Origin: an uncultured Verrucomicrobiae bacterium
Lineage (GTDB): Bacteria > Verrucomicrobiota > Verrucomicrobiia > Limisphaerales > Palsa-1400
Assembly: GCA_963707025.1 (NCBI GenBank)
Contig: CAVPOM010000018.1
Location: 12,507 to 76,506, forward strand
Direction of reading: 5' to 3'
Length of the DNA: 64,000 nucleotides
The translations under genes were made by a program, and so were the position numbers. The notes beneath the pieces were generated by a model. It saw nothing but the letters and a program-made list of their open reading frames with translations, did not search any database and was not told the origin of the DNA. This document shows, one piece after another, positions 9,560 to 54,056 of the stretch. Each line of letters starts with the position of its first letter. Position 1 is the stretch's first letter.

Positions 9560-10007
9560 CGCGCCGGCGTCACGCCGGTGTCAATGCCGGACAGCGGGGA
9601 AGTCCCGAATGGCCAGGTCTATAGGGCGGACTCGTTAAAGTGCTGGGTGTCCCGCAATTGGTTTGGAGTGGTGGGCAGATTTCACGGCCAAGCTGTTTTG
9701 CAACGTCGAGTTCTGGATTGCCAGCCCGCCGCAGTTCGCAGAGCGAAGGAGGGAACGTCTGCCGACAATGATCGGGTCTTCTGAGATTATCGCCATTGTA
9801 ATTCCGGATTCCCGCCTTGATCCAATTAGCCATAAGCACTTGCAGTCCAACTGATTACGATTTGCAGTGCGCAAAAGTATAGGTTGACCCATTTGACTTT
9901 GACTTAGACGGCCCCCCATTGGAAGCAGCCAGCCGAGAGCGAGAGGCTAGGAATGCACGACAAAAGGACTTGAAAACATCTCAATCCTGATTGGTCGCGG
10001 GGCCACG

Positions 10008-24126: not shown

Positions 24127-24208
24127 CTTAATCTTAATCTTAATCCTAATCTTAATCTCTTTGGAGGATTTGGCGCATTAAGATTAAGATTAAGATTAGG
24201 ATTAGGAG
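24127..24208. repeat. Hexamer-repeat element, inverted pair (locus 1)
   Basis: Five units of CTTAAT/CCTAAT (24127..24156), a 17-nt spacer, then five units of ATTAAG/ATTAGG (24177..24206). Together these can form a roughly 30-bp stem with one mismatch. Confidence 0.9.
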
Positions 24209-25708: not shown

Positions 25709-25812
25709 CTTAATCTTAATCTTAATCATAATCTTAATCGCACTGGTGGTGATCAGAGATTAGGATTAGGATTAGGATTAGGATTAGGATTAAGATTGGG
25801 ATTGAAGATTGG
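25709..25812. repeat. Hexamer-repeat element, inverted pair (locus 2)
   Basis: Five CTTAAT-type units (25709..25738), then a spacer, then five ATTAGG units and one ATTAAG unit (25759..25794), then three degenerate units. Confidence 0.9.
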
Positions 25813-27141: not shown

Positions 27142-27174
27142 CTTAATCTTAATCCTAATTTTAATCTCATAATC
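27142..27174. repeat. Hexamer-repeat element, single arm (locus 3)
   Basis: cttaatcttaatcctaattttaatctcataatc lies between the aminopeptidase stop and the next start. It shares CTCTTAATCTTAATCCTAAT with locus 5. Confidence 0.85.
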
Positions 27175-30030: not shown

Positions 30031-30684
30031 ATGTCCGATATCTTTCCAAAGTGGACCAACCGGTTGCCGCGCAACATTATTATTGGGGCGGTGCTGGTGG
30101 GTTCCGGGGTGCTGGCCGGGGTGACCTATTATTTCACGCCGAAGTACACGCGGGTGGGTTATGAACCGATCCAGCCGGTGGCCTTTGCCCACAGCGTGCA
30201 TGTGGAGCAATTGGGGCTGGATTGCCGCTATTGCCATAATACGGTGGAGAAATCCTGGTATTCCAACATCCCGGCCACGTCCACCTGCATGAACTGCCAT
30301 GTCCAGGTGTTGAAGGACGATGCCCGGCTGGCGCTGGTGCGGGAAAGCGCGGCCTCGGGCCAGCCGATTCCCTGGGTGCAAATCCACAAGATGCCCGATT
30401 TTGTCTATTTCAACCATTCCGTCCATGTCAACCGGGGTGTCAGTTGCGTGGAATGCCACGGGCAGATCAACCAGATGGACGAAGTGTATCATGCCAAACC
30501 TTTGAGCATGTCCTATTGCCTGGACTGCCATCGCGACCCGACGATGCGGGTTCGTCCGCTGGCCGAGATCACGCATTTGGATTGGAAACCCGAGTCCGCG
30601 GCCAGGCAAAGGGAGGATGGCGAAAAGATGATGCATGATTGGCGGATTCAATCCTTGCAAACCTGCTCGACTTGTCACCGATGA
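30031..30684 (+). CDS. actA: Alternative complex III subunit ActA, pentaheme cytochrome c
   Basis: N-terminal TM segment. Five CxxCH motifs are present: CRYCH, CMNCH, CVECH, CLDCH and CSTCH. Confidence 0.85.
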   Translation: MSDIFPKWTNRLPRNIIIGAVLVGSGVLAGVTYYFTPKYTRVGYEPIQPVAFAHSVHVEQLGLDCRYCHNTVEKSWYSNIPATSTCMNCHVQVLKDDARLALVRESAASGQPIPWVQIHKMPDFVYFNHSVHVNRGVSCVECHGQINQMDEVYHAKPLSMSYCLDCHRDPTMRVRPLAEITHLDWKPESAARQREDGEKMMHDWRIQSLQTCSTCHR

Positions 30685-33600
30685 AAAACCCACCCACACC
30701 CGCACCGGCAGGCCCGGCCTATTGGCGCAGTTTGGACGAACTGGCGGACACGCCGCAGTTCCGCCAATGGGTGGAAAAGGAGTTTCCGGCCGGGGCGAGC
30801 GAATTGTTTGATCCGGTGACGCGGCGCAATTTCGTCAAGATCATGTCGGCGTCCTTCCTCCTGGCGGGCCTCGGGGCGACGGGCTGCCGCCGGCCGGTGG
30901 AGAACATTTATCCGTTCGCCAAGATGCCGGAGAATTATGCGCATGGCCTGCCGCAGTTTTTTGCCACGGCCATGCCGTCCCGCCGCGGGGCGGTGCCGCT
31001 GGTGGTGAAATCCAGCGACGGGCGCCCGACCAAAGTGGAGGGCAATCCCGACCACCCGGACAGCAACGGCGGCACGGACCCGTTTGCGCAGGCGTCGGTG
31101 TTGAGTCTTTATGATCCCGACCGGGCCCAACGCTACGCCAGGAACGGGAGCCTGAGCACCAAGGCGGCGGCGTTGGATGCCTTGGCCGCGCTGGCCGGGA
31201 AGTTTGGGAACGGGGACGGGGTGGCGTTTCTCATGGAGCAAAGCAGCTCGCCTTCCCGCGCGCGGCTGCAACGGATGGTCAGCGAAAAATATCCGAAGGC
31301 GCGCTGGTTTGTTTATGAGGCGGTGGATCTGGATGCGGCGCGCATTGCGGCCTCGCTGGCTTACGGCATCCCGGTGGCGCCTTATTACAACCTGGAAAAG
31401 GCGGAAAAAATTCTGGCGCTGGATTGTGATTTTATCGGCACCGAGGAAAATGCGACGGTCAACATCCGGCGCTTCGCCCAGGGCCGGCATGTCGCGGGCA
31501 AGGACGACCCAATGAGCCGGCTCTATGCGGTGGAGAGCTTGTTCACCTTGACAGGGATGAACGCGGACCATCGTTTGCGCGTCGCGCCCAGCCTGATGGT
31601 CGCGGTGGTGGCGCGGATGGCGCTCAATATCCTGCCTTCCGGCGATTGGGACGCCAAGCTGAAGGAATTGTCCGCCCCGGCGCAGGGCTTTGATGATTGG
31701 ATCGTGCCTTGCGCGAAGGATTTGAAGGCAAGCGGCGGGAAAGGTTTGGTGATGGGCGGTTATCGTTTGCCGCCAGCGGCCCATTTGCTGGTGCTGGCGA
31801 TGAACGAGGCTCTTGGTGCGGTGGCGGATCACACGATTGAATTTCATGAAGTTCCCGAGGCAACCGAAGAGGACATTAGCATCCTCGTGAAGGCGCTGGG
31901 CGCTGTCCAATTCCAGACTTTGATCATGTTGGGCGGCAATCTGGCTTACAATGCTCCGGCGGACTTGAACTGGTCGCAGGCGTATCCAGGGGGGAAACTC
32001 CAAAGGACAATCGTGCGGCTCGGTTATTATGAAGATGAAACGTCGTGCCCCCCTCCTCCAACGATGACGAGTCAATGGGATTTGCCGATGGCGCATTTTC
32101 TGGAGTCGTGGGGCGACGCGCGCACGGCCAACGGAACTTTGGTCCCGATTCAGCCGCTGATCGAGCCGCTGTTTGACGGGCTGACGGAATTGGAAGTGCT
32201 GGCGATTCTGGCGGGCGCGGAAAAGACCAAGCCTTACGAAATCGTGCGCGAAACATTTCGCCTCCTTGGCGGCCCCGGCGAGAATGATTGGCGGAAGTTT
32301 TTGCACGACGGTTTCCTCGCAGGCAGCGCGGCGGTGCCGGCCACTGTACAGTTCAACGCCAAGCTGCTCGCGCCGGTGTTGGATTTGTTGAAGCCCGCGG
32401 CCGCGCCCGGACCGGGCAACTTGGACGTCGTTTTCCATCGCGATTCCAAGATGGACGACGGACGGCATAATAATAACGGCTGGTTGCAGGAATTGCCGGA
32501 CCCGATCACCAAGCTGACCTGGGACAACGCGATTTTGGTAAGCCCCAAGACGGCCCATGAGCTGAAGCTCGCGCCCGATGAGCAGAAGCGCGACCAGACG
32601 CAGCGATTTTACGACCAGGTGGTGGAAATTCAATTGGGCGAGCGGAGAGTGCGCGGCACGATCTGGGTCCAGCCCGGCATGGCGGATTATACCGTGGGGC
32701 TGGCGCTGGGATATGGTCGCGTGAAGACGGGGCGGATCGGGCGCGGTTGCGGCTACAACGCGTATAAAGTGCGGACGACCGACGCCATGCATTACGGGTC
32801 GAACGCCAAGTTGACGAAAGTGGGCACGGCGTATCAATTGTCCACCACGCAGAGCCATTGGAGCATGGAAGGGCGCGCGCCGGTGCGGGAAGCCAATCTG
32901 GAGGATTTTCGCAAGCAGCCGGATTTCGCGGCGAAAATGGACTTGGAAAAGCCGCCCACCATAGCGCCGATGTATCCCAACCCATTCGACACCACCAAGG
33001 CCAAAGGATTGCATCAGTGGGGCATGGCCATAGATTTGAGCAAATGCGTGGGATGCTCGGCCTGCATGGTGGCGTGCCAGAGCGAGAACAACGTCCCCAT
33101 TGTGGGCAAGGAAATGGTGGGCAAGAGCCGCGAGATGCACTGGATACGGATTGACCGTTATTATTCCGGTGTGGGCAAGAATCCCGAGGATGATCCGCAG
33201 GCGGTGGTCCAGCCGATGCTCTGCCAGCATTGCGAAGCCGCCCCGTGCGAGAATGTTTGCCCGGTCAATGCCACCTCGCATGATGACGAAGGGCTGAACG
33301 TGATGGTGTATAACCGCTGCGTCGGCACGCGTTATTGCTCCAACAACTGCCCCTACAAAGTGCGCCGCTTCAATTTCTTTGATTACAACCGCCGCCCGCT
33401 GGACAAACTTTACGACAGCCCGCTCGATCCGCTCAACCGGAAGGACGGCAAATGGGAGTTCCTGCGATGGTGGGACAATCCGGACCGGGGCAACCTGCCG
33501 GAAGACCAGTGGCAACTGGTGCGCATGGTCAAGAACCCCGACGTGTCGGTGCGGATGCGCGGGGTGATGGAGAAATGCACCTTCTGCGTGCAACGGCTGG

Positions 33601-33968
33601 AGCAGGCCAAGATCGCCGCGAAGGTCAAGGCGCGCGCTTCGGACCACATCCGCTTGTCGGAGAAGGAAGGGACCATTCCCAGGACGGCGTGCCAGCAGGC
33701 CTGTCCGGCGGAGGCGATTGCCTTTGGCGACATTTTGGACAAGGAAAGCACCGTGAGCAAATGGAAGGACAATCCGCGCAATTACACGGTGCTGGACGTT
33801 CTCCACACCAAACCGCGCCTGACTTACCTGGCCAAGGTGCGCAATCCCAATCCCGAGATGCCCGATTACAAGCAGCACCCCGCGCCTTACAGCTACGACG
33901 ACTATTCCAAAACCATGGGCCGGCCCGCCTTGGAGGAGGGTGAGGCGACTGAGAAAGGAGCCCGGTAA
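30681..33968 (+). CDS. actB: Alternative complex III subunit ActB (molybdopterin-oxidoreductase-like B1 fused to 4Fe-4S B2)
   Basis: The ATG at 30681 overlaps the actA stop (ATGA). TAT-like TRRNFVK is present. Fe-S cluster motifs are [49 protein letters not shown] and [10 protein letters not shown]. Confidence 0.9.
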
Positions 33969-35458
33969 TGGCGGACGCCACTCCAGCCCCGATGTTGACG
34001 CAGGACGCGCCGCTGGTGGTGCAGGCGCCGCCCGTGGAGTTGGAACGCGAGCCGCTCGTGGCCAACGGCCACGGCATCGGCTGGCTGTCCGACACCATAG
34101 CGGGAGTGGCCGAAGGCAAGCCCAAGTTCTGGTGGTGGATTTGTTTCACCATCAGCGCGACCATGATGACGGTGTGCTTTCTGTGCATACTATATCTGAT
34201 GTCCACCGGGGTGGGGGTCTGGGGTGTGGCGCACCCGGCCATGTGGGGCTATGCCATCGTCAATTTCGTGTGGTGGATCGGCATCGGCCATGCCGGAACC
34301 CTGATCTCGGCGATTTTGTTTCTGCTGCGGCAGAAATGGAGGACTTCCATCAACCGCGCGGCCGAAGCGATGACCATCTTCGCCGTGATGTGCGCCGGCA
34401 TCTTTCCTCTCATCCATATTGGGCGAATCTGGCTGGGCTACTGGCTGTTCCCCATCCCCAATGCCAACGGCATCTGGCCGCAATTCCGCTCGCCCCTGAT
34501 GTGGGACGTTTTCGCCGTCTCCACCTACTTCACCGTCTCGGTGCTGTTCTGGTACATGGGATTGATACCCGATCTGGCCGTGATGCGGGACCGGGCCACG
34601 ACGAAAAGCCGGAAGTTCGGCTACGGCCTCTTCGCCCTGGGCTGGACCGGCTCCAACCGGCACTGGAGCAATTATGAGAAGGCCTACCTCATTCTGGCGG
34701 GCCTGTCCACGCCGCTGGTGCTCTCGGTCCATTCCATCGTCTCGCTGGATTTTTCGGTCTCGCAAATCCCCGGCTGGCACACCACCATTTTCCCCCCCTA
34801 CTTTGTGGCGGGGGCCGTTTACTCCGGTTTTGGGATGGTGCTGACGCTGCTGGTGCCGCTGCGGCGGATGCTGAAACTGGAAGACATCATCACGGTGCGG
34901 CATGTGGAGTTGATGTGCAAAGTGACCCTGCTCACCGGCTCCATCGTGGGCTATGCCTATGTGATGGAGTTTTTCATCGCCTGGTACGGGGGCAATCCTT
35001 ATGAGAAATACCTCTTTCTCCATGAGCGCGCGGCGGACCCGTTCATCATTGCCCCGCTCTACGGAATCGAGCCGGCGCCCTACTGGTGGGCCTGGTGGAT
35101 GATGATTATCTGCAACGTGCTGGTGCCGCAGCTATTCTGGTTCAAGAAGGTGCGGACCACCATGATCCTGGTTTTCATCCTGTCCATTTTAGTCAACGTC
35201 GGCATGTGGTTCGAACGATTTGTCATCATCATCGTTTCGTTGACCCGTGAATTCATTCCGGCCAACTGGGGATATTACCGTCCGTCGTGGGTGGATATTT
35301 TGCAATTTTTGGGAACGTTTGGCTTGTTCTTTACGTTCTTCCTGTTGTTCCTGCGCTACGTCCCGTTGATCGCCATTGCGGAGGTCAAGGGCGTGACGCC
35401 GCAAGCCGACCCGCACCATCCGCTGGGCGGGGCGAAAAGCGGAGGGCACCACCCATGA
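33968..35458 (+). CDS. actC: Alternative complex III subunit ActC (NrfD/PsrC-like quinol-interacting membrane subunit)
   Basis: Polytopic membrane protein of NrfD type, sitting directly after actB with a TAATG overlap. Confidence 0.9.
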
Positions 35459-35988
35459 GCGGACGGCCTTACGCGATCCTGGCGGAATTTGAAAGCCCGG
35501 CGGCCATCCTGCAGGCGGCGGACAAGGTGCGCGGGGAGGGATACCGCAATTGGGACGTTTTCACCCCGTTCCCGATCCACGGCATGGACCGGGCGATGGG
35601 GATCAAGAACTCCAAAGTGGGCTGGTTTTCTTTCATTGGCGGCGTGACGGGGTACGCCACGGGGATGTTGATGATCTGGTTTATGAACACGGTGGATTAT
35701 CCGATCGTCATCGGCGGCAAGCCGATGTTCAGCCCGTTTTCCGCTTTTCCGCCGTCCTACGAATTGACGATTTTGTTCGGGGCCTTCGGGGCGCTGCTGG
35801 GGATGCTGTTCCTCAACCGGCTGCCCCGGCTGCATCATCCCCTGCTCAAGCACGGGCGGTTCAAGCTGGCCAGCCACGACCGTTTTTACGTGGTGATCGA
35901 AACCAACGATCCCAAATACGCCGAGCCGGCGACCCGGCAAATGCTGGAGTCGCTGGGGAGCAAGCACGTTGAATTCGTCGAGGAATAA
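35455..35988 (+). CDS. actD: Alternative complex III subunit ActD (DUF3341)
   Basis: [49 protein letters not shown]... matches the DUF3341 pattern, followed by two TM segments. ATGA overlap with actC. Confidence 0.85.
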
Positions 35989-36656
35989 TGCGCTACTTTT
36001 ACCTCATTTTTTTTCTGACCTGCGTGACGGTGATCGGCCTGGCCGGTTTTCGCGGCAGCAAGTCGCGCCAGCCGCCCATTGAGCTGTTTAACGACATGGT
36101 GCGCCAAAACAAGGTGCGCCCGCAGACGCCGAGCGATTTCTTCGCCGACGGCCGCAGTTCGCGGGCGCGGCCCGAAGGCACGGTGGAGCGCAGCCTGCCT
36201 TATGAACTCAACGGCCAATTGGTGCTGGTCAACGGCAAACCGGTTTATCCCTACGAAGAGGCCCCCATGAACACCGGGCGGATGACGGGCACGACCAATT
36301 TCATCGAAACCGGCCCGCTGGCCATCACGCGGGAATTGCTGGACCGGGGCCAGGAGCGTTATCAGATTTATTGCCTGCCGTGCCACGGCCCGGCGGGAGA
36401 CGGCAAGGGGATCACGGGCAAATACGGCATGGTGAGCATGGCCGATTTTCACGCCCAGCGCCTGGTGGAGATGAAGGACGGTGAGATTTTTAATACCATG
36501 ACGGTCGGGAAATTGCCGCTCATGCCGGCCTACGGGGCGCTGCTTGGGGTGGAAGACCGCTGGGCGATCATCTCCTACATCCGCGCCTTGCAACGCAGCC
36601 AGTTGGCGACGGTGGAAGACGTGCCCGAGGCGAAACGGGGAGAATTTAAGAAATGA
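35988..36656 (+). CDS. actE: Alternative complex III subunit ActE, monoheme cytochrome c
   Basis: N-terminal anchor, a single CLPCH haem site and a distal Met region (MPAYG). TAATG overlap with actD. Confidence 0.85.
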   Translation: MRYFYLIFFLTCVTVIGLAGFRGSKSRQPPIELFNDMVRQNKVRPQTPSDFFADGRSSRARPEGTVERSLPYELNGQLVLVNGKPVYPYEEAPMNTGRMTGTTNFIETGPLAITRELLDRGQERYQIYCLPCHGPAGDGKGITGKYGMVSMADFHAQRLVEMKDGEIFNTMTVGKLPLMPAYGALLGVEDRWAIISYIRALQRSQLATVEDVPEAKRGEFKK

Positions 36657-36708
36657 GATTAAGATTAAGAAAAGAGATTAAGATTAAGATCAAGATTAAG
36701 AAATAAGG
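36656..36708. repeat. Hexamer-repeat element, single arm (locus 4), filling the actE-actF spacer
   Basis: gattaagattaagaaaagagattaagattaagatcaagattaagaaataagg starts at the actE stop codon and ends 8 nt before the actF ATG. Confidence 0.85.
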
Positions 36709-36716
36709 CCAGGATT

Positions 36717-37988
36717 ATGAACAAGGACACTCCATCCTCATCGGTTGCGCCGCTGGATTTGGCCAAATGGCGGCATGTGCCCGTGATCTTGATGGCGGCG
36801 GGCGGGATCGGGGCGGGGCTGGGCGCGGCGGCCTGCGGGAGCCGGCAGTTCGCCTTTTCCTGGCTGGTGGCCTTCATGTTTTACTTGAGCTTGTGCCTGG
36901 GCGCCTGGTTTCTGGTGATGGTGCATCATTTGTTTGACGCAAACTGGTCGGTGCCGACGCGGCGGTTTTGCGAACACCTGGCCTGTCTGGCGGGCTGGCC
37001 GATGCTGCTGCTGTTTGTCCCCATTGCCGTCCTGGCGCCGCGCCTCTATGAATGGATGAACGAGCTGCGGCATCCGGATCATGCCTTGGCGGCCAAATAT
37101 CCGTTGTTCACCATGAAGGGTTTTTATATCGTGGCGGCGGTTTGCTTCGGCGTCTGGTGGCTCTTTACCAACCGTTTGCGGCACTGGTCGCTGCAGCAGG
37201 ACAAGACGGGCGCGGCCCATTGCATGCGCCGCATGCGGTTTTATTCCGCCCTGGGCATCATCCTTTTTGCGGGGACGCTCACCCTGGCCGCGATCGTGTG
37301 GATGAAGGGGCTGATGTATGAATGGGCCTCGACCATGTACGGGGTCTGGTATTTCGCGGCGAGCGTCTGGGTGGCGCTGGCCACAGTGTATGTCATTACG
37401 CTGATCTTGCAGCGCACGACGGCGTTGCGGGATGTGGTGACGGAAAAGACGTATTACATGATTGGCTCGCTCTTGTTCGCCTTTACCGTGTTCTGGGCCT
37501 ACATCAGCTTTGGGCAGTACTTTATCGTCTGGAACGCGAACATGCCGGAAGAGACCTTCTGGTACGTGCTGCGCGAAAAGGGGACGTGGTGGTTCACGGG
37601 GGCCATCATCATCATCTTCGGCCATTTCTTCCTGCCCTTTCTGGCGCTGCTGCGGATAGATGTGAAACTGAAGCTGGCGGCCATGCTGCCGTTGTGCGCC
37701 TGGGCCTGGCTCATGCACCTGGTGGACGTGGAGTTCCAAGTCATGCCCAGCCTGCATGAGAACGGGGTATTCACTTTCACCTTTCCCTTCCTGACGGCCA
37801 GCCTGCTGGTGGACTTGGCCTGCCTGATGTTCATCGGCGGATTCCTCGCCAAACTTTTTCTGTGGTCGCTCAACCGGCATCCCGTCTATCCCTTGCAGGA
37901 CCCGCGCATGGCGGAAGCTCTGGACGTTTATGTGCCGCCGGCCAGCGCCGCCGCCATTATTCCCGGTCCCGGGGTAAAAGAACTATAA
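36717..37988 (+). CDS. actF: Alternative complex III subunit ActF (second NrfD-like membrane subunit)
   Basis: Polytopic membrane protein, 423 aa, in the position expected for ActF. Confidence 0.85.
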   Translation: MNKDTPSSSVAPLDLAKWRHVPVILMAAGGIGAGLGAAACGSRQFAFSWLVAFMFYLSLCLGAWFLVMVHHLFDANWSVPTRRFCEHLACLAGWPMLLLFVPIAVLAPRLYEWMNELRHPDHALAAKYPLFTMKGFYIVAAVCFGVWWLFTNRLRHWSLQQDKTGAAHCMRRMRFYSALGIILFAGTLTLAAIVWMKGLMYEWASTMYGVWYFAASVWVALATVYVITLILQRTTALRDVVTEKTYYMIGSLLFAFTVFWAYISFGQYFIVWNANMPEETFWYVLREKGTWWFTGAIIIIFGHFFLPFLALLRIDVKLKLAAMLPLCAWAWLMHLVDVEFQVMPSLHENGVFTFTFPFLTASLLVDLACLMFIGGFLAKLFLWSLNRHPVYPLQDPRMAEALDVYVPPASAAAIIPGPGVKEL

Positions 37989-38002
37989 ATGATAAATGAA
38001 CC

Positions 38003-38371
38003 ATGAGCACTGAATCCATCCGCGGAAAATGCGGCCAGGGCCTGACCGTGCTGGGGGTGGCGGGAGCGTTTTTAGTGATGGCCTGGCTGGTCTGGCTGAT
38101 GCGCGCCTACACGCACCCGCCCGCCCTGGCTGAGGCCCGCGCCGTGGAGCGGCTGAAGATCAAGGCCGAGTTCGACGCGGCCAACGCCCCGCTGCTCAAC
38201 GGGTATGACTGGGCCGACAAGGAGAAGGGATTTGTGCGCATCCCGGTGGAGCGGGCCAAGGAATTGATCTTGCAGGAATGGCAGAATCCGGCGGCGGGCC
38301 GCTCCAATCTGACCAACCGGGCGGCCAGGGAATTCGCCCCCGCCGCCGTGGCGAAAAACCCGTACGAGTAG
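38003..38371 (+). CDS. Small single-TM protein in the ACIII cluster (possible accessory subunit)
   Basis: 122 aa with TM segment LTVLGVAGAFLVMAWLVWLM. The gap to actF is 14 nt. No family recognised. Confidence 0.6.
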   Translation: MSTESIRGKCGQGLTVLGVAGAFLVMAWLVWLMRAYTHPPALAEARAVERLKIKAEFDAANAPLLNGYDWADKEKGFVRIPVERAKELILQEWQNPAAGRSNLTNRAAREFAPAAVAKNPYE

Positions 38372-38434
38372 CGGCACAGAATTATAAATGATAAATGAAG
38401 AGGGCGAATGTTGCTTTGGGTGGTGCTTCCCTCT

Positions 38435-38609
38435 CTTAATCTTAATCCTAATCTTAATCTTAATCTCATTCGTGCAATCGGTAATCAGAATTGGCTTTGA
38501 TCAAGCCCACGAGCAGCGAAACGATGATATACTTGCAGCTTTTCGTGGTCGAAGACTCGATTCACTCGGATTAGGACGATTAAGATTAAGATTATGATTA
38601 AGATTAAGA
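38435..38609. repeat. Hexamer-repeat element, inverted arms flanking a 101-nt unique core (locus 5)
   Basis: Left arm 38435..38467 (CTTAAT/CCTAAT units), core 38468..38568, right arm 38569..38609. The stretch 38576..38603 is identical to 54025..54052 (28 nt). Confidence 0.85.
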
Positions 38610-38625
38610 CCAGGAGCAGATACCC

Positions 38626-40098
38626 ATGAGCGTGACTGAGGCACCAGCGGCAACGGCGGCAACGGCGGCTGGCCCGCAGGTTTCGAGGACCCAACTCGAA
38701 ACTTCCGGGGCGGTGCCGCTCCTGGGCCTGTTCGCCGGCGCGGCGGTCTGGCTCCTGCTGGGTTTGCTGCTGGCGCTGCTCTGTTCGCTCAAACTGCATG
38801 CCGCCGGCTTGCTGGCCTCCGGGCCGATGTTCACTTATGGGCGCGTCCACGCCGCGGCGGACACGGCGCTGCTCTATGGCTTTGGCGTTCCGGCCGCGCT
38901 GGGAACCGGGCTGTGGCTGCTCTGCCGCCTGGGGCGGACGCGATTGGCGGCGCCGGCGGTGGCCGCCGTGGGAGCGCTGGCCTGGAATGCGGCGGTGGCC
39001 GCGGGTCTCTGGGCCATCCTGCGCGGCGGCGGGACCGGCTACCAAGGGTTTGAGATGCCGGGGGCCATCGCGCCGGTTCTGCTGTTGTCGTACCTGCTGA
39101 TCGGAATCTGCGGGGTCGTCACCTTTGGGCAGCGGGAGGCGGGGCCGCTTTATCCGTCGCAATGGTTCGTGCTCGGGGCGCTTTTTTGGTTTGGGTGGAT
39201 TTTTTCCACGGCGGGGCTGCTGCTGCTGGGCGCGCCGGTGCGCGGCGTTCTCCAGGCCTTGGTCAACTGGTGGTATGAGCATAATCTGGGCACGGTGTTT
39301 TTTGGGTTTGCCGGGCTGGCTTCGATTTTTTATTTCATCCCCAAACTGACCGGGCGGCCGCTGCACAGTTATTATCAGGCGGCGCTGGCGTTCTGGATGC
39401 TGGCGCTGGCGGGCAGTTGGGGCGGAATTCCCGGCGGCGCGCCGCTGCCGGGCTGGCTGGTCAGCGTGTCCGTGGCGGGGACGGTGCTGACGGTCATCCC
39501 CATCGCGGCGGTGGCGATGAATTTGTATTTGACGGTGAGAGGGGAGGCGCTGGCGCGGGAGGCCTGCCCCAGCCTTCGTTTCACCTGCGCGGGCCTGATT
39601 TTTTGGGTGATCGCCAGCGCGCAGGAGGTGGCGGGGGCGCTGCCGTCGGTCGGGGCGCTGACCGATTTCACCTGGTTCACCACGGCGCAACGGGACCTGT
39701 TCCGCTACGGTTTCGTGGGGATGACGATGTTCGGGGCGATTTATTACATCGTGCCGCGGCTGGCCGATGCCAAGTCCGCCGCGCCGGACGGACTGTGGAA
39801 AGGGTGGTTAAGCCAATGGCATTTCCGGCTGATGCTGGCGGGGGTGGTGATTGGATACATGGCCTTGCTGGTGGCGGGCGTCTGGGAGGGAGTGGAGTTC
39901 CAAAGCCCCGCCCATTCGTTCGCGGCGGTGATGAGGGGCACGATGATGGCGCTGCGCCTGAGCACGCTGGGTCCCCTGTTGCTCACGCTGGGGATGATCG
40001 CCTTTCTGCTGAATTTTGCGCTGCTGCTGAAAGGTTGCTGCGCCCGCTGCCGCCGGGAAAGATGGGGCGGCCGGGAGATGCGAAAGGGGGACGCATGA
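38626..40098 (+). CDS. CcoN-like (cbb3 oxidase subunit I-like) membrane protein lacking most metal-ligand histidines
   Basis: Colinear similarity to CcoN: FTYGR...LLYGFG, LYPSQWFVLGA, NWWYEHNLGTVFFGFAGLASIFYFIPKLTGRPLHSY, LTDFTWFT...YGFVGMTMFGAIYYIVPR, SQWHFRL. There are only six His in 490 aa. The CuB HH site reads GGIPGG and the haem HxH site reads TAQRD. Confidence 0.8.
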   Translation: MSVTEAPAATAATAAGPQVSRTQLETSGAVPLLGLFAGAAVWLLLGLLLALLCSLKLHAAGLLASGPMFTYGRVHAAADTALLYGFGVPAALGTGLWLLCRLGRTRLAAPAVAAVGALAWNAAVAAGLWAILRGGGTGYQGFEMPGAIAPVLLLSYLLIGICGVVTFGQREAGPLYPSQWFVLGALFWFGWIFSTAGLLLLGAPVRGVLQALVNWWYEHNLGTVFFGFAGLASIFYFIPKLTGRPLHSYYQAALAFWMLALAGSWGGIPGGAPLPGWLVSVSVAGTVLTVIPIAAVAMNLYLTVRGEALAREACPSLRFTCAGLIFWVIASAQEVAGALPSVGALTDFTWFTTAQRDLFRYGFVGMTMFGAIYYIVPRLADAKSAAPDGLWKGWLSQWHFRLMLAGVVIGYMALLVAGVWEGVEFQSPAHSFAAVMRGTMMALRLSTLGPLLLTLGMIAFLLNFALLLKGCCARCRRERWGGREMRKGDA

Positions 40099-40868
40099 AC
40101 AACGGGCCGATGCTTTATTTGGGATTGTTTGCCGCGATGGCGATTTCGTGGGTAACCTTTGTACTCGGCCCGCAGGTGCAAATGGCCGGCCTGCTGCCCG
40201 CCCGGACGGTGGGGTCGCTGCCGGTCAGTTATCCGAACACCCCGCCCGGCCTGGCGCGGCAGGGGGCCGAGGTGTACCGGGCCTGCGGGTGCGTCTATTG
40301 CCATACCCAGCAGGTCCGCCCCGAGGAGCTGGGCTCGGACTTGGCCCACGGCTGGGGCATCCGGCGGAGCGTGGCGCATGACTACATTTATGATCGTCCG
40401 GTCCTGCTGGGCACGCAGCGGGTCGGGCCGGACCTGGCCAATGCGGGGTTGCGCATGGATGCCATGGCCGTGCTGGTGCGGCTGTGGGATGCCCGCACCA
40501 TCAATCATCTGGACGCCGCCCATTCCATTATGCCGTCCTACAAGTATTTGTTTGAAGTGCGCAAAATCGGGCGGATGCCATCGCCCGACGCCCTGGTGGT
40601 TGCGCCGCAATTTGCGGCGGCGCCAGGTTATGAGATTGTGCCGCGGCCGGCGGCGCGCGCCCTGGCGGCGTATGTGGCGAATATGCGCCAGGAGCCGTAT
40701 CTTTTTGAAGCACCGCCGCCGCCGGGTGCGATCAACACCAACACGCCGGCGGGAGGAACCAACGCGCCGGCCGGCGGGACCAATGCGCCGGCGGGAGGCA
40801 CCAATGCACCCGCGGCGGGCAGCGGAGCGCCCGGCCTGCCTGGCGGCACGAATGCGGCCAAACCGTAA
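40095..40868 (+). CDS. CcoO-like monoheme cytochrome c subunit (cbb3 subunit II-like)
   Basis: ATGA overlap with the upstream gene. TM anchor, then GAEVYRACGCVYCHTQQVRP (CxxCH), RRSVAHDYIYDRPVLLGTQRVGPDLANAG and MPSYKYLF. The C-terminal tail carries three PAGGTNA repeats. Confidence 0.8.
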   Translation: MNNGPMLYLGLFAAMAISWVTFVLGPQVQMAGLLPARTVGSLPVSYPNTPPGLARQGAEVYRACGCVYCHTQQVRPEELGSDLAHGWGIRRSVAHDYIYDRPVLLGTQRVGPDLANAGLRMDAMAVLVRLWDARTINHLDAAHSIMPSYKYLFEVRKIGRMPSPDALVVAPQFAAAPGYEIVPRPAARALAAYVANMRQEPYLFEAPPPPGAINTNTPAGGTNAPAGGTNAPAGGTNAPAAGSGAPGLPGGTNAAKP

Positions 40869-40884
40869 TCCGCCATCCGCAACC

Positions 40885-40933
40885 ATTAAGATTGAGAATG
40901 GAGATTAAGATTAGGATTAAGATTAAGATTAGA
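40885..40933. repeat. Hexamer-repeat element, single arm (locus 6)
   Basis: attaagattgagaatggagattaagattaggattaagattaagattaga lies between the CcoO-like stop and the cytochrome c start. Confidence 0.85.
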
Positions 40934-40950
40934 ATGCAATCCGTCACGCC

Positions 40951-41577
40951 ATGAACCAGAATCCTCCAGAGCCAGCCGCCGCTGTGGAACGGGATGAGCC
41001 TGCCGTCGGGCCGTCGGCTGTTCCCATCTGGCTGATTCTTCTGCTGGGCTTGCTGGTTTACTGGGGATTGAATTATGTCAATGAGCACGGCGGCTGGTTC
41101 AATGCGCAAGTTTATGAGCCGTTCACCACCTATGCGGAAGTGGCGCAATGCCAGCCGCACAATCCGGAAGGTGACTATCTGGCGTTGGGCGAGTCGGTGT
41201 TTAAAGAATCCTGCATTCTGTGCCATCAAGCCAATGGCGCGGGCAAGGAAGGCCAGTTCCCGCCGCTGGCCGGGTCGGACTGGCTGAATGCACCGGGGCC
41301 AAACCGGATCGTCCGCATTGTTTTGAACGGCCTGACCGGGCCCATCCGGGTTGAAGGAGGTCCCAACGGCCCGGTCGGCCTCAATGCCACCATGGCGCCG
41401 CTGGGAGGCACTTACACCGATGAGAAAGTGGGGGCGGCCTTGACCTACGTGCGCCAGCAGTGGGGCAACAAAGCATCGAAGATCACGCCCGATCAGGTCA
41501 GAACCATCCGGGAAGCGATCAAAGCGCATCCCGCGCCGTTCACGCCGGATGATTTGTTGAAGATTCCGGTGCAATAA
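40951..41577 (+). CDS. Membrane-anchored class I monoheme cytochrome c
   Basis: TM segment IWLILLLGLLVYWGL. Haem site CILCHQANGAG, then PPLAGSDWL and a distal MAPLG. Confidence 0.8.
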   Translation: MNQNPPEPAAAVERDEPAVGPSAVPIWLILLLGLLVYWGLNYVNEHGGWFNAQVYEPFTTYAEVAQCQPHNPEGDYLALGESVFKESCILCHQANGAGKEGQFPPLAGSDWLNAPGPNRIVRIVLNGLTGPIRVEGGPNGPVGLNATMAPLGGTYTDEKVGAALTYVRQQWGNKASKITPDQVRTIREAIKAHPAPFTPDDLLKIPVQ

Positions 41578-41641
41578 GAATAGTGAATTGAGAATTGAGA
41601 ATAGTGAAGTTTCTGAATTCTCAATTCTACATTCTCAATTC
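41578..41641. terminator. AT-rich imperfect hairpin built from GAATTGA-type repeats, between convergent genes
   Basis: gaatagtgaattgagaattgagaatagtgaag-tttctg-aattctcaattctacattctcaattc, with core stem GAATTGAGAAT/ATTCTCAATTC. It lies between the cytochrome c stop (41577) and the M20 peptidase stop (41635). Confidence 0.5.
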
Positions 41642-43008
41642 ATCTTTCCCAGCCGGCGCCAAAGGAGGGCGCTCATGCGCGAGCCTTTTTCGTAGCAATC
41701 CAGGTTGAATTTTTCGTTGGGAGAATGGGCGTTGTCATCGGGCAGGGCCAAACCCAGGAGCAAGGAATCGGCGCGCAGAACTTTTCTGAACTGGGTGACG
41801 ATGGGAATGGAACCGCCTTCGCGGATGAGAATGGGTTCGCAGCCAAAGGCTTCCCTGAGGGTGGCCAAGCCGGCCTGGGCCAGCGCGCCGGAGGGGGAAA
41901 CCAGATACGGCTCGGCGCCGTGTCCCGCCTCGGCTTGCAAACGCACGGTGGGCGGACAGATTTTTTTGAGCTGCTTGAGAATCGCCTTGCGGATGCGCTC
42001 CGGGTTTTGCTCGGGCACCAGGCGAAAGGTCAGCTTGGCCCTGGCCCAGGCCGGAATGATCGTCTTGCTCCCCTCCCCCTGATAACCGCTGGTCAGGCCG
42101 TTGATCTCGATGGTCGGACGGGAACTGCGTTGCTCGATGAAATTATAGCCGCGCTCGCCAAACAGCCGCGGCACGCCCAGGGACTTCCGATAGGCCGCTT
42201 CCGTCATGGGAAAGCGGGCCATTTGTTTTCTCTCGTAGGCGGAGAGCGGGGCAACGTCGTCGTAAAAACCGGGAATGGCGACGCGCCCGTTTTTGTCGCG
42301 CAACCGGGCGAGCAACTGGCTCAGGGCCAGGGCGGGATTGTCCACCGTGCCGCCGTAGATGCCGGAATGCAAATCGCGGGCCGGCCCGTGGAGGGTGATT
42401 TCCACGGCGCAGATGCCGCGCAAGGCATAAGTCAGGGCGGGATGATCCAGGCCGGGCATGCCGGTGTCGGAAATGACGACGGCCCGGCAGTGCAGTTCGT
42501 CGTGGTTGGCCAGCAGGAAGCTGTCCAGGCTTTTGCTGCCCACTTCCTCCTCCCCTTCGATGATGAAGGTGAGGTCGCAGGGGAGCGAAGTTTTTGTGGC
42601 CAGATAAGCCTCCACCGCGTTGAGGTGGGCGAGGTTTTGCCCCTTGTTATCGCTGGCGCCCCGGGCGAAGAGGGAACGGCCTTCGAGGCGCGGCTCGAAG
42701 GGAGGGCTTTTCCAAAGGTCAAACGGCTCGGCCGGTTGCACATCGTAATGGCCGTAAATGAGAAACGACGGCTTGGTGGAATGAGGCGAGCGCGGCGTTT
42801 TGGCGACGACGACGGGATGGCCGGCGGTGGGACAAAGGCGGCTTTCCAGGCCGATGTCTTTGCAGTGCGCCACCAGCCACGCGGCGCAGGCGGCCAGATC
42901 GCCGCGATGGGCCGGTTGGGCGGAGACGCTGGCAAAGCGGACGTACTGACAAAGCTGGTCCAGGAAATGCGCCTTCTTTTGCTCCAGATAATTCAAAACG
43001 GCTTGCAT
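41635..43008 (-). CDS. M20-family dipeptidase / peptidase
   Basis: 457 aa with ...FLIYGHYDVQPAEP..., RGASDNKGQ, IIEGEEEVGS and ...HSPNEKF..., which match the M20 metal-ligand blocks. Confidence 0.85.
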   Translation of the reverse strand: MQAVLNYLEQKKAHFLDQLCQYVRFASVSAQPAHRGDLAACAAWLVAHCKDIGLESRLCPTAGHPVVVAKTPRSPHSTKPSFLIYGHYDVQPAEPFDLWKSPPFEPRLEGRSLFARGASDNKGQNLAHLNAVEAYLATKTSLPCDLTFIIEGEEEVGSKSLDSFLLANHDELHCRAVVISDTGMPGLDHPALTYALRGICAVEITLHGPARDLHSGIYGGTVDNPALALSQLLARLRDKNGRVAIPGFYDDVAPLSAYERKQMARFPMTEAAYRKSLGVPRLFGERGYNFIEQRSSRPTIEINGLTSGYQGEGSKTIIPAWARAKLTFRLVPEQNPERIRKAILKQLKKICPPTVRLQAEAGHGAEPYLVSPSGALAQAGLATLREAFGCEPILIREGGSIPIVTQFRKVLRADSLLLGLALPDDNAHSPNEKFNLDCYEKGSRMSALLWRRLGKMN

Positions 43009-43105: not shown

Positions 43106-43182
43106 CCTAATCTTAATCTTAATCTTAATCTTAATCTTAATCCTAATCCTAATCCGCTGGCACGAAGCAGATTAAGATTGGG
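43106..43182. repeat. Hexamer-repeat element (locus 8): long left arm, short right arm
   Basis: Eight CTTAAT/CCTAAT units (43106..43153), spacer cgctggcacgaagcag, then attaagattggg (43171..43182). Confidence 0.9.
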
Positions 43183-53953: not shown

Positions 53954-54056
53954 CTTAATCCTAATCCTAATCCTAATCCTAATCCTAATCTTAATCTCAA
54001 TCCTCAGGATCCCAGAAGGAGATTACGATTAAGATTAAGATTATGATTAAGAATCA
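53954..54056. repeat. Hexamer-repeat element, inverted pair (locus 9)
   Basis: Eight CTTAAT/CCTAAT units (53954..54001), spacer cctcaggatcccagaagg, then a right arm of ATTACG/ATTAAG/ATTATG units (54020..54056). Confidence 0.9.

Follow-up and report, generated by a model that had tools for sequence, protein, structure and literature searches.

We describe a gene from an uncultured Verrucomicrobiae bacterium whose product has kept the fold of a respiratory oxidase subunit and has lost nearly all of the residues that would bind its redox cofactors. The gene lies at positions 38626-40098 on the + strand of a 64,000-nucleotide stretch of contig CAVPOM010000018.1 (assembly GCA_963707025.1; the whole stretch is referred to here as the window), in one cluster with the genes of alternative complex III (ACIII), and its uninterrupted open reading frame (ORF) encodes a 490-aa, full-length homologue of CcoN, subunit I of the cbb3-type (C-family) members of the haem-copper oxidase (HCO) superfamily. 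Profile searches, alignments and a structural model mark the product as a CcoN-like pseudo-oxidase, with an HCO subunit I fold lacking the ligand sets of haems b and b3 and of CuB. We consider it very likely that catalysis has been lost, and we lean towards the view that the protein is a non-catalytic, cofactor-depleted descendant of CcoN from an ACIII-linked cbb3-type oxidase, kept as a platform or relay.

Fold and ligand columns of the CcoN-like protein

The original prediction for this DNA had described the protein as colinear with cbb3 subunit I, and both profile and fold comparisons bear this out. PF00115 matched over the whole length (E 4e-37, 128.5 bits vs. a cutoff of 34.8), and the best Foldseek match of an AlphaFold model (built on 89 sequences; pLDDT 90.1, pTM 0.90) was the solved CcoN chain 3mk7_A (TM 0.84/0.89, rmsd 2.1 A, 22% identity); the model matched cNOR and ba3 oxidases less well (cNOR 3o0r_B, TM 0.75/0.81). 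As judged from the model, the 12-helix subunit I fold is kept. Identity to solved CcoN chains is ~21-22%, and the protein scored below the threshold of the ccoN equivalog TIGR00780 (115.4 bits vs. a cutoff of 583.15).

To identify the ligand columns we used phmmer alignments to solved CcoN (chains 9g6b_A, 6xkw_n and 3mk7_A) as well as a MAFFT alignment that included two of these chains, and the two kinds of reading agree; canonical positions are quoted here in P. stutzeri CcoN numbering. The protein contains exactly six His (residues 58, 75, 219, 247, 399 and 430), among which H219 (39280-39282, + strand), the His of the WWYxHN motif in the column of CuB ligand H207, is the sole canonical ligand retained, as had been predicted. 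The haem b ligand H60 is replaced by A78, and a His, H75, stands one turn (three residues) earlier in the helix-2 site H75-A-A-A78 (38848-38859, + strand), again in line with the prediction. The cross-link Tyr, Y251, had been thought to be replaced by Ser, but its column aligns to G263, and S264 is the next residue. The CuB ligands H257 and H258 fall on P269 and on either a gap or G270 within WGGIP--GGAP, and the segment formed by G263 and W265-GGIPGGAP-273 (39412-39444, + strand) stands, with a 2-residue deletion, in place of the canonical WAGPHHLHY; residues 266-275 are non-helical in the AlphaFold model. The predicted loss of the HH pair stands, and the nine-residue motif, which had been placed at about residues 265-272 (nucleotides about 39418-39441), occupies residues 265-273 (39418-39444). 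Finally, Q355-R356-D357 (39688-39696, + strand) lies at the HxH columns, with Q355 in place of the haem b3 proximal ligand H345 and D357 in place of H347, the second haem b His; the claimed replacement of HxH by TAQRDL holds, at residues 353-358 rather than 352-357.

The bis-His pair of haem b, the proximal His of haem b3, the set of three CuB His and the cross-link Tyr are all wanting, as is the set expected of a nitric oxide reductase (NOR; three His and a Glu for FeB, with the haem b/b3 His), for which the same ligand columns are empty. The protein is a CcoN homologue without the features by which catalytic members are recognised. Misalignment as the cause of the missing His was considered and ruled out, as the three phmmer alignments, the MAFFT alignment and the Foldseek fold match agree, and no profile- or structure-anchored alignment placed a His at a canonical column other than that of H219.

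The proton-uptake channel of C-family oxidases is, we assume, lined by T215, Y223, S240, Y251, N289 and Y317. Canonical sequences of the comparison group do not vary at these positions (100% conservation), and five of the six are replaced in the CcoN-like protein (T by G227, Y by F235, S by A252, Y by G263 and Y by W327), with the Asn kept as N299.

A ligand-less clade and its canonical relatives

A database search with the CcoN-like protein returned 361 homologues at E <= 1e-10, and in 116 near full-length homologues with 53-88% identity the same ligand losses recur, together with a GSWGGIPxGAPLP motif that hardly varies. Searching 1.84 billion cluster representatives with a profile produced 499 matches at E <= 1e-30; among the top representatives that this search newly added, 149 in number, 145 were non-canonical and only 4 had a full canonical set. 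The clade comprises at least 145 clusters at 50% identity, all with the full-length fold.

For column statistics we pooled 186 full-length non-canonical sequences. All seven catalytic residues are missing from 104 of them; one is left in 56 and two in 20. The helix-2 haem b column holds A in 85, Q in 23, S in 17 and H in 17; the column of H219 is not conserved (H 44, N 52); the cross-link Tyr column is G or A in 161; and the haem b3 His column is most commonly Q (54), L (40) or R (20), with H in 7. Conversely, 40 columns are conserved at >=85%, all of them common to canonical CcoN and mostly W/G/P/R/Y/F, with no His. Among these sequences we found no clade-specific conserved His, Cys, Met, Lys or Tyr column, and no replacement ligand site is visible across them. 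The coexistence of 40 conserved columns with variable ligand columns indicates that constraint acts on the fold and not on the former active site.

Measured against three close relatives, the CcoN-like gene has a dN/dS of 0.27-0.37; ActC is lower, at 0.10-0.13, and the CcoO-like gene has 0.19-0.35. Sequence comparison thus indicates that the clade is under purifying selection, and that it is large and diverse, mostly found in Verrucomicrobiota, with ligand columns that are not conserved. Periplasmic loops came out slightly better preserved than cytoplasmic ones (entropy ratios to canonical CcoN of 1.5 and 2.0), a difference on which we do not rely since the group sizes differ. A lineage-specific decaying pseudogene, raised as an alternative in the original prediction, is ruled out by the intact frame, by hundreds of conserved orthologues and by this dN/dS range, and among act-linked homologues ligand loss defines a large clade, mostly Verrucomicrobiota, a question that the prediction had raised.

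A scan of species-representative genomes yielded 80 loci, no two of which come from the same metagenome-assembled genome (MAG). The order ActABCDEF, ActG-like, CcoN-like, CcoO-like and cytochrome c was found in nearly every locus with enough upstream DNA, and again in two further members checked separately, one of them on a 4.3-Mb contig. Co-location of ACIII and cbb3 genes is also reported for Methylacidiphilum (Verrucomicrobia; PMC6688271). The loci fall into a canonical group (group a; 24 loci) with all seven catalytic residues, from Planctomycetota and some Verrucomicrobiota and in many cases ACIII-linked; a ligand-less group (group b; 49 loci and the gene studied here), marked by the two-residue deletion and, with few exceptions, carrying Verrucomicrobiota labels (Verrucomicrobiia, Limisphaerales, Pedosphaera); and a partial group (group c; 7 loci), including the Chthoniobacterales loci L054, L055 and L066, which keep both haem b His and have lost the haem b3 His and the Tyr together with the CuB ligands. 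The nearest canonical relatives of the CcoN-like protein share 33-41% identity with it and come from ACIII-linked clusters. In neighbour-joining trees the ligand-less sequences form one large clade, with a few separate losses (for instance L080 and P0169).

Several MAGs with a typical verrucomicrobial or planctomycetal ACIII/cco cluster (L012, L026, L030, L041, L043, L052, L073 and L078) carry odd labels, namely Saccharimonadales, Baltobacteraceae, Bifidobacteriaceae, Angelobacter, Aquilonibacter, Alcaligenaceae and Methylomirabilota. Binning contamination is the most likely explanation of these labels.

The canonical and ligand-less clusters differ in their maturation genes. In the complete genome CP074694.1 (L084) the order is ActA-F, a small ORF, FixS/CcoS, CcoN, CcoO, cytochrome c and a P-type ATPase of the CcoI type, and we searched all loci and the window by tblastn with the maturation proteins of this genome. 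Directly upstream of CcoN, L084 and 19 other loci, all of them canonical, carry a CcoS homologue (upstream DNA is available for 21 group a loci, and 19 of these have it), and a CcoI-type ATPase lies downstream in 7 group a loci. By contrast, neither ccoS nor ccoI gave a tblastn match in any ligand-less or partial locus, nor in the 64-kb window.

The partial loci differ in another respect. L075 carries, on one strand between 9974 and 20204, ACIII, a partly degenerate CcoN/CcoO/cytochrome c set and a complete A-family oxidase, as do L054, L055, L059, L066 and L079; these loci are of Chthoniobacterales/Spartobacteria type. Motif and tblastn scans of the window and all loci placed an A-family CoxA 2-8 kb downstream on the same strand in 6 of the 7 partly degenerate loci and behind no other group, and in L075 the A-family set comprises CoxA (437 bits), a COX4_pro-domain protein, COX2, CtaA and SCO1. 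In these loci, then, the degenerate module is followed by a working oxidase, and this supports the relay reading.

The gene cluster, its cytochromes and its intergenic repeats

The + strand of the window from 30031 to 41577 is a single tight cluster that runs from ActA through a monohaem cytochrome c. It opens with ActA, the pentahaem cytochrome c subunit of ACIII (30031-30684; Pfam Cytochrome_C7/CIII, five CxxCH, syntenic in ~60 loci), and ActB, the Fe-S subunit (30639-33968; Fer4_7/Fer4_11 domains, 1109 aa, conserved synteny). ActC, the NrfD-type quinol-binding membrane subunit (33968-35458; PF03916 NrfD, E 3e-20), is followed by ActD (35287-35988; PF11821 ActD, E 5e-64, over ORF residues 63-229), whose ORF shares ~170 nt (35287-35458) with the end of ActC, so that its real start is probably downstream of 35287; in CP074694.1 ActC and ActD form one fused 667-aa protein (L084, 5088-7091). 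Next come ActE, a monohaem cytochrome c (35988-36656; Cytochrome_CBB3/Cytochrom_C domains, one CLPCH), and ActF, a second NrfD-like membrane subunit (36717-37988; phmmer to solved ActF, 6f0k_F 1.2e-50 and 6lod_F 7e-46). With a pentahaem ActA, an Fe-S ActB, an NrfD-type ActC, ActD, a monohaem ActE and ActF in one cluster, the ActABCDEF set of ACIII is complete.

Between ActF and CcoN lies a small protein of 122 aa with a hydrophobic N-terminal stretch (38003-38371, + strand), which has no Pfam or NCBIfam match. Its homologue is syntenic in nearly all loci, in canonical and ligand-less clusters alike, and the counterpart in L084 (orf153) matches the equivalent ORF of L083. We refer to it as putatively ActG-like, by analogy of position and with the single transmembrane helix predicted for ActG (PMC5928083). 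The cluster is flanked by housekeeping genes that have no relation to it and encode peptidases, a GFO/IDH oxidoreductase, an HDOD response regulator and KDPG aldolase. The cytochrome c gene is followed, on the other strand, by an M20 peptidase gene both in the window (41635-43008, - strand) and in L081 (13513-14452), a relative with ~54% CcoN-like identity to the protein studied here, which indicates that the downstream boundary of the cluster is conserved. A promoter and terminator scan of the operon gave counts no higher than in shuffled sequence.

Downstream of the CcoN-like gene, two cytochrome genes have kept what the CcoN-like protein has lost. The CcoO-like monohaem cytochrome c (40095-40868, + strand; FixO 63.5 bits vs. 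a cutoff of 29.6; phmmer to 6xkw_o and 3mk7_B, ~1e-11) overlaps the CcoN-like gene by ATGA (ATG 40095-40097, TGA 40096-40098), and both its C66-VYCH and its M146-PSY align to solved CcoO. It is a monohaem protein with CxxCH and a Met ligand that adjoins CcoN, as expected of a CcoO partner, and the coordinates and the alignment agree with the coupling and the kept motifs that had been predicted. Its low-complexity C-terminal tail of 51 residues (window 40713-40865) begins with PPPP and three PAGGTNA repeats and is then rich in P/A/G/T/N; T/N/A/P-rich CcoO-like tails also occur in L024, L033 and L050, and the CcoO-like protein of L033 has a long Ala-rich insertion. The CcoP-like monohaem cytochrome c that follows (40951-41577, + strand) has Cytochrom_C/Cytochrome_CBB3 domains and a weak match to ccoP TIGR00782. 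It has one CILCH, at residue 88, so that the predicted single haem is confirmed; its predicted membrane location remains putative, given by an N-terminal hydrophobic stretch that may serve as an anchor.

Across the clade CxxCH is kept in the CcoO-like protein at 45 of 47 loci (the other two have split ORFs), and in the cytochrome c and ActE at all 47, so that with these haem motifs the operon still encodes eight c-type haem sites. In six cluster representatives (P0122, P0125, P0138, P0179, P0232 and P0257) CcoN-like and CcoO-like are fused in frame with the CxxCH kept, which suggests that the two may still act as a unit.

The intergenic gaps of this 61% GC genome contain AT-rich (TAATCT)n arrays, most of them inverted pairs able to form long hairpins. 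Such arrays lie at window positions 24129-24204, 25711-25768, 27144-27167, 36656-36698, 38433-38616, 40902-40931, 43108-43180 and 53980-54049, three of them inside the act/cco operon, and TAATCTTAATCT (<=1 mismatch) has 42 matches vs. 0.03 expected. The palindromic (TAATCT)n/(AGATTA)n element in the gap between the ActG-like and CcoN-like genes (38433-38616, no strand assigned) is an inverted repeat with 41-nt arms that are 83% complementary; its RNA fold has -69.6 kcal/mol (z -5.5), and its 3' arm covers the Shine-Dalgarno AGGAG (38612-38616), which is paired in the fold. In most related loci this gap has a few bases only. The closest relative, L001 (~88% protein identity), has a palindrome of AT-rich hexamer repeats in the corresponding intergenic gap (9875-9960), but with different units, of GAATGAA type on one side and of TTTGCATT type on the other, so the hexamer unit seems to differ between the two genomes. 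The arrays may represent a family of REP- or MITE-like elements, or may serve to control translation.

Proposed role, rival explanations and known systems

Because the protein has no canonical haem b, haem b3 or CuB site and the ligand-less loci have lost ccoS and ccoI, it cannot be a conventional O2 reductase, as the original prediction had held. We reasoned that a CcoN-like protein that no longer reduces O2 could serve as a membrane platform on which the CcoO-like and probably also the CcoP-like cytochrome c would assemble beside ACIII. Quinol-derived electrons would then pass from the ActA/ActE haems to the two extra c haems (CcoO-like and CcoP-like) and on to a separate acceptor, which in the partly degenerate relatives would likely be the A-family oxidase encoded just downstream, and in the source genome some oxidase or periplasmic reductase. 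Both ACIII and cbb3 are known to hand over electrons at extra c haems (PMC8552683). On gene order and the remaining features of the proteins we hold this scaffold and relay role with moderate confidence. The prediction of a conserved, non-catalytic HCO offshoot that links ACIII to c-type cytochromes is supported by these findings; which of the more specific roles that it named applies, scaffolding or docking or that of a proton channel, is inferred.

Several points weigh against a platform and relay. No other oxidase was found by motif and tblastn scans within <=10 kb in any ligand-less locus or in the 64-kb window. A physical complex of the CcoN-like protein with ACIII or with the CcoO-like protein is suggested by gene order, and frameshifts at the ATGA overlap could have produced the fusions of CcoN-like to CcoO-like as artefacts. 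The absence of cofactors is likewise read from the sequence, and residues other than His can ligate haem. Close relatives keep the clade-specific polar residues H58, H247, H399, Q355, E/D357, R206 and Q210, which could have some role, and the conservation of an entire 12-helix protein may exceed what a simple anchor needs. The trees, moreover, are two neighbour-joining trees built without bootstrap support, and they differ in where they place the partial forms.

On a rival reading the protein would still be a redox enzyme, with haem or another metal on non-canonical ligands and with a different reaction, much as the NOR families diverged. Its fold is fully kept and under purifying selection, H58, H247 and H399 persist in close relatives, as often do H75, H219 and H360, the partial loci L054, L055 and L066 keep both haem b His, and HCO families with altered ligand sets are known in gNOR and nNOR (bioRxiv 10.1101/2021.10.15.464467). 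However, no His, Cys, Met or Lys column reaches >=85% in the 186 sequences, the conserved Tyr columns are all also canonical, and few columns vary as much as those of the ligands; no ligand-less locus has a ccoS or a ccoI. The residues that we take to form the proton channel are, in addition, now non-protonatable, and we regard a surviving redox function as very unlikely. A functionless relic heading for loss, carried inside a useful operon, would account for the disappearance of all catalytic features, for a dN/dS above that of the ACIII subunits and for ligand-region sequences that are highly variable across the clade. It would not account for a dN/dS that is still well below 1, for a full-length fold throughout the clade's many clusters, for the structural columns conserved at >=85% or for the near-invariance of GSWGGIPxGAPLP in close relatives. 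The ORF is also intact here and in most of the ~57 ligand-less and partial loci, and the few split ORFs sit in contigs where other cluster genes are fragmented too, a coincidence that suggests assembly error; a relic is hardly credible.

An ion- or proton-conducting module, or one of conformational coupling, that aids energy conservation by ACIII would explain why a 12-helix membrane protein is conserved without cofactors and why it is so tightly linked to ACIII in one operon, and ACIII itself offers a parallel, since ActF is a cofactor-less paralogue of ActC that lacks the quinone site and has a proposed part in proton transfer (PMC5928083). Such a subunit would nonetheless be without a driving redox centre, and we saw no clade-wide conserved chain of buried acidic, basic or polar residues; the conserved Arg are shared with canonical CcoN. 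The C-family proton path as we take it to run, the only one known, is lost as well, with G, F, A and W at its positions, and because these residues are gone the proton-channel option is less favoured than scaffolding or docking. We consider it unlikely, and retain the platform and relay as our preferred reading.

The six subunit I His are treated as defining the HCO superfamily, and a conserved clade that lacks nearly all of them shows use of the scaffold beyond catalysis. How electrons exit ACIII and which partners dock to it are open questions (PMC8552683), for which this module offers a natural system. The canonical, partial and fully degenerate forms at one locus also form a rare readable series from respiratory enzyme to pseudoenzyme. 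JGI and NCBI name proteins of the clade 'cbb3-type cytochrome c oxidase subunit I', and in genome papers ACIII-linked cbb3 genes are scored as high-affinity oxidases (e.g. PMC6688271), an inference that may not hold for many Verrucomicrobiota of peat and soil. We put forward tentatively, as a broader proposal that is quite possible, that this is the first recognised HCO subunit I family lacking all redox cofactors, fixed as a structural part of an ACIII module (ACIII and a pseudo-cbb3 with two extra c haems), widespread in soil and peat Verrucomicrobiota, making 'ccoN'-based calls of high-affinity (microaerobic) respiration there wrong, and arisen stepwise from a working ACIII-linked cbb3 by loss of ccoS and ccoI, then of the binuclear centre and then of haem b.

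Among known systems the closest is CcoN of cbb3 oxidases (PDB 3MK7, 5DJQ, 6XKW, 9G6B), with which the protein shares the fold, PF00115, the W/G/P/R columns and a gene order in which a FixO-type monohaem and a further cytochrome c follow; it differs in lacking five of the six His ligands, the cross-link Tyr, five of the six assumed channel residues and a nearby ccoS or ccoI. The canonical ACIII-linked cbb3 clusters of Planctomycetota and Verrucomicrobiota (for instance CP074694.1, or L084, and L040, L053, L062 and L076) have the same gene order, but they keep the seven catalytic residues, with FixS/CcoS upstream and often a CcoI-type ATPase downstream, whereas the clade described here has neither gene. 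ACIII operons followed by oxidase genes, and supercomplexes of ACIII with aa3 or caa3, are established (PMC5928083). In those of Flavobacterium johnsoniae (6BTM) and Rhodothermus marinus (6F0K) oxidase genes likewise follow the ACIII operon and electrons are handed over directly via extra c haems (PMC5928083, PMC8552683); the partner there is a working A-family oxidase, whereas the adjacent oxidase-like subunit I here lacks cofactor ligands. We found no structure of an ACIII-cbb3 assembly in a PDB structure search or in full-text literature searches, and no description of a ligand-less CcoN in the latter.

Change or loss of a cofactor site with the fold kept is also seen in gNOR, in the haem-less cytochrome c domain of qNOR and in the CuA-less subunit II of bo3 (bioRxiv 10.1101/2021.10.15.464467), and the 2021 survey that describes them presents gNOR as the first family in which so much as a single active-site His is replaced. 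In those variants, however, one ligand or an accessory subunit is changed and subunit I is catalytic, whereas here essentially the whole subunit I ligand set is gone. An experimental precedent for a cofactor-free CcoN as an assembly platform comes from Rhodobacter capsulatus. PMC8267372, citing Koch 2000 and Kulajta 2006, states that CcoS is needed there for the haems b and b3 and the CuB of CcoN, that CcoI supplies copper, and that an inactive CcoNOQP complex still assembles without CcoS. On that account the ccoS mutant, as is probable for the protein described here, has a CcoN without haems b and b3 and without CuB; the mutant, however, is a laboratory state of a canonical protein, whereas the CcoN-like protein of this clade represents a natural, fixed and conserved evolutionary state.

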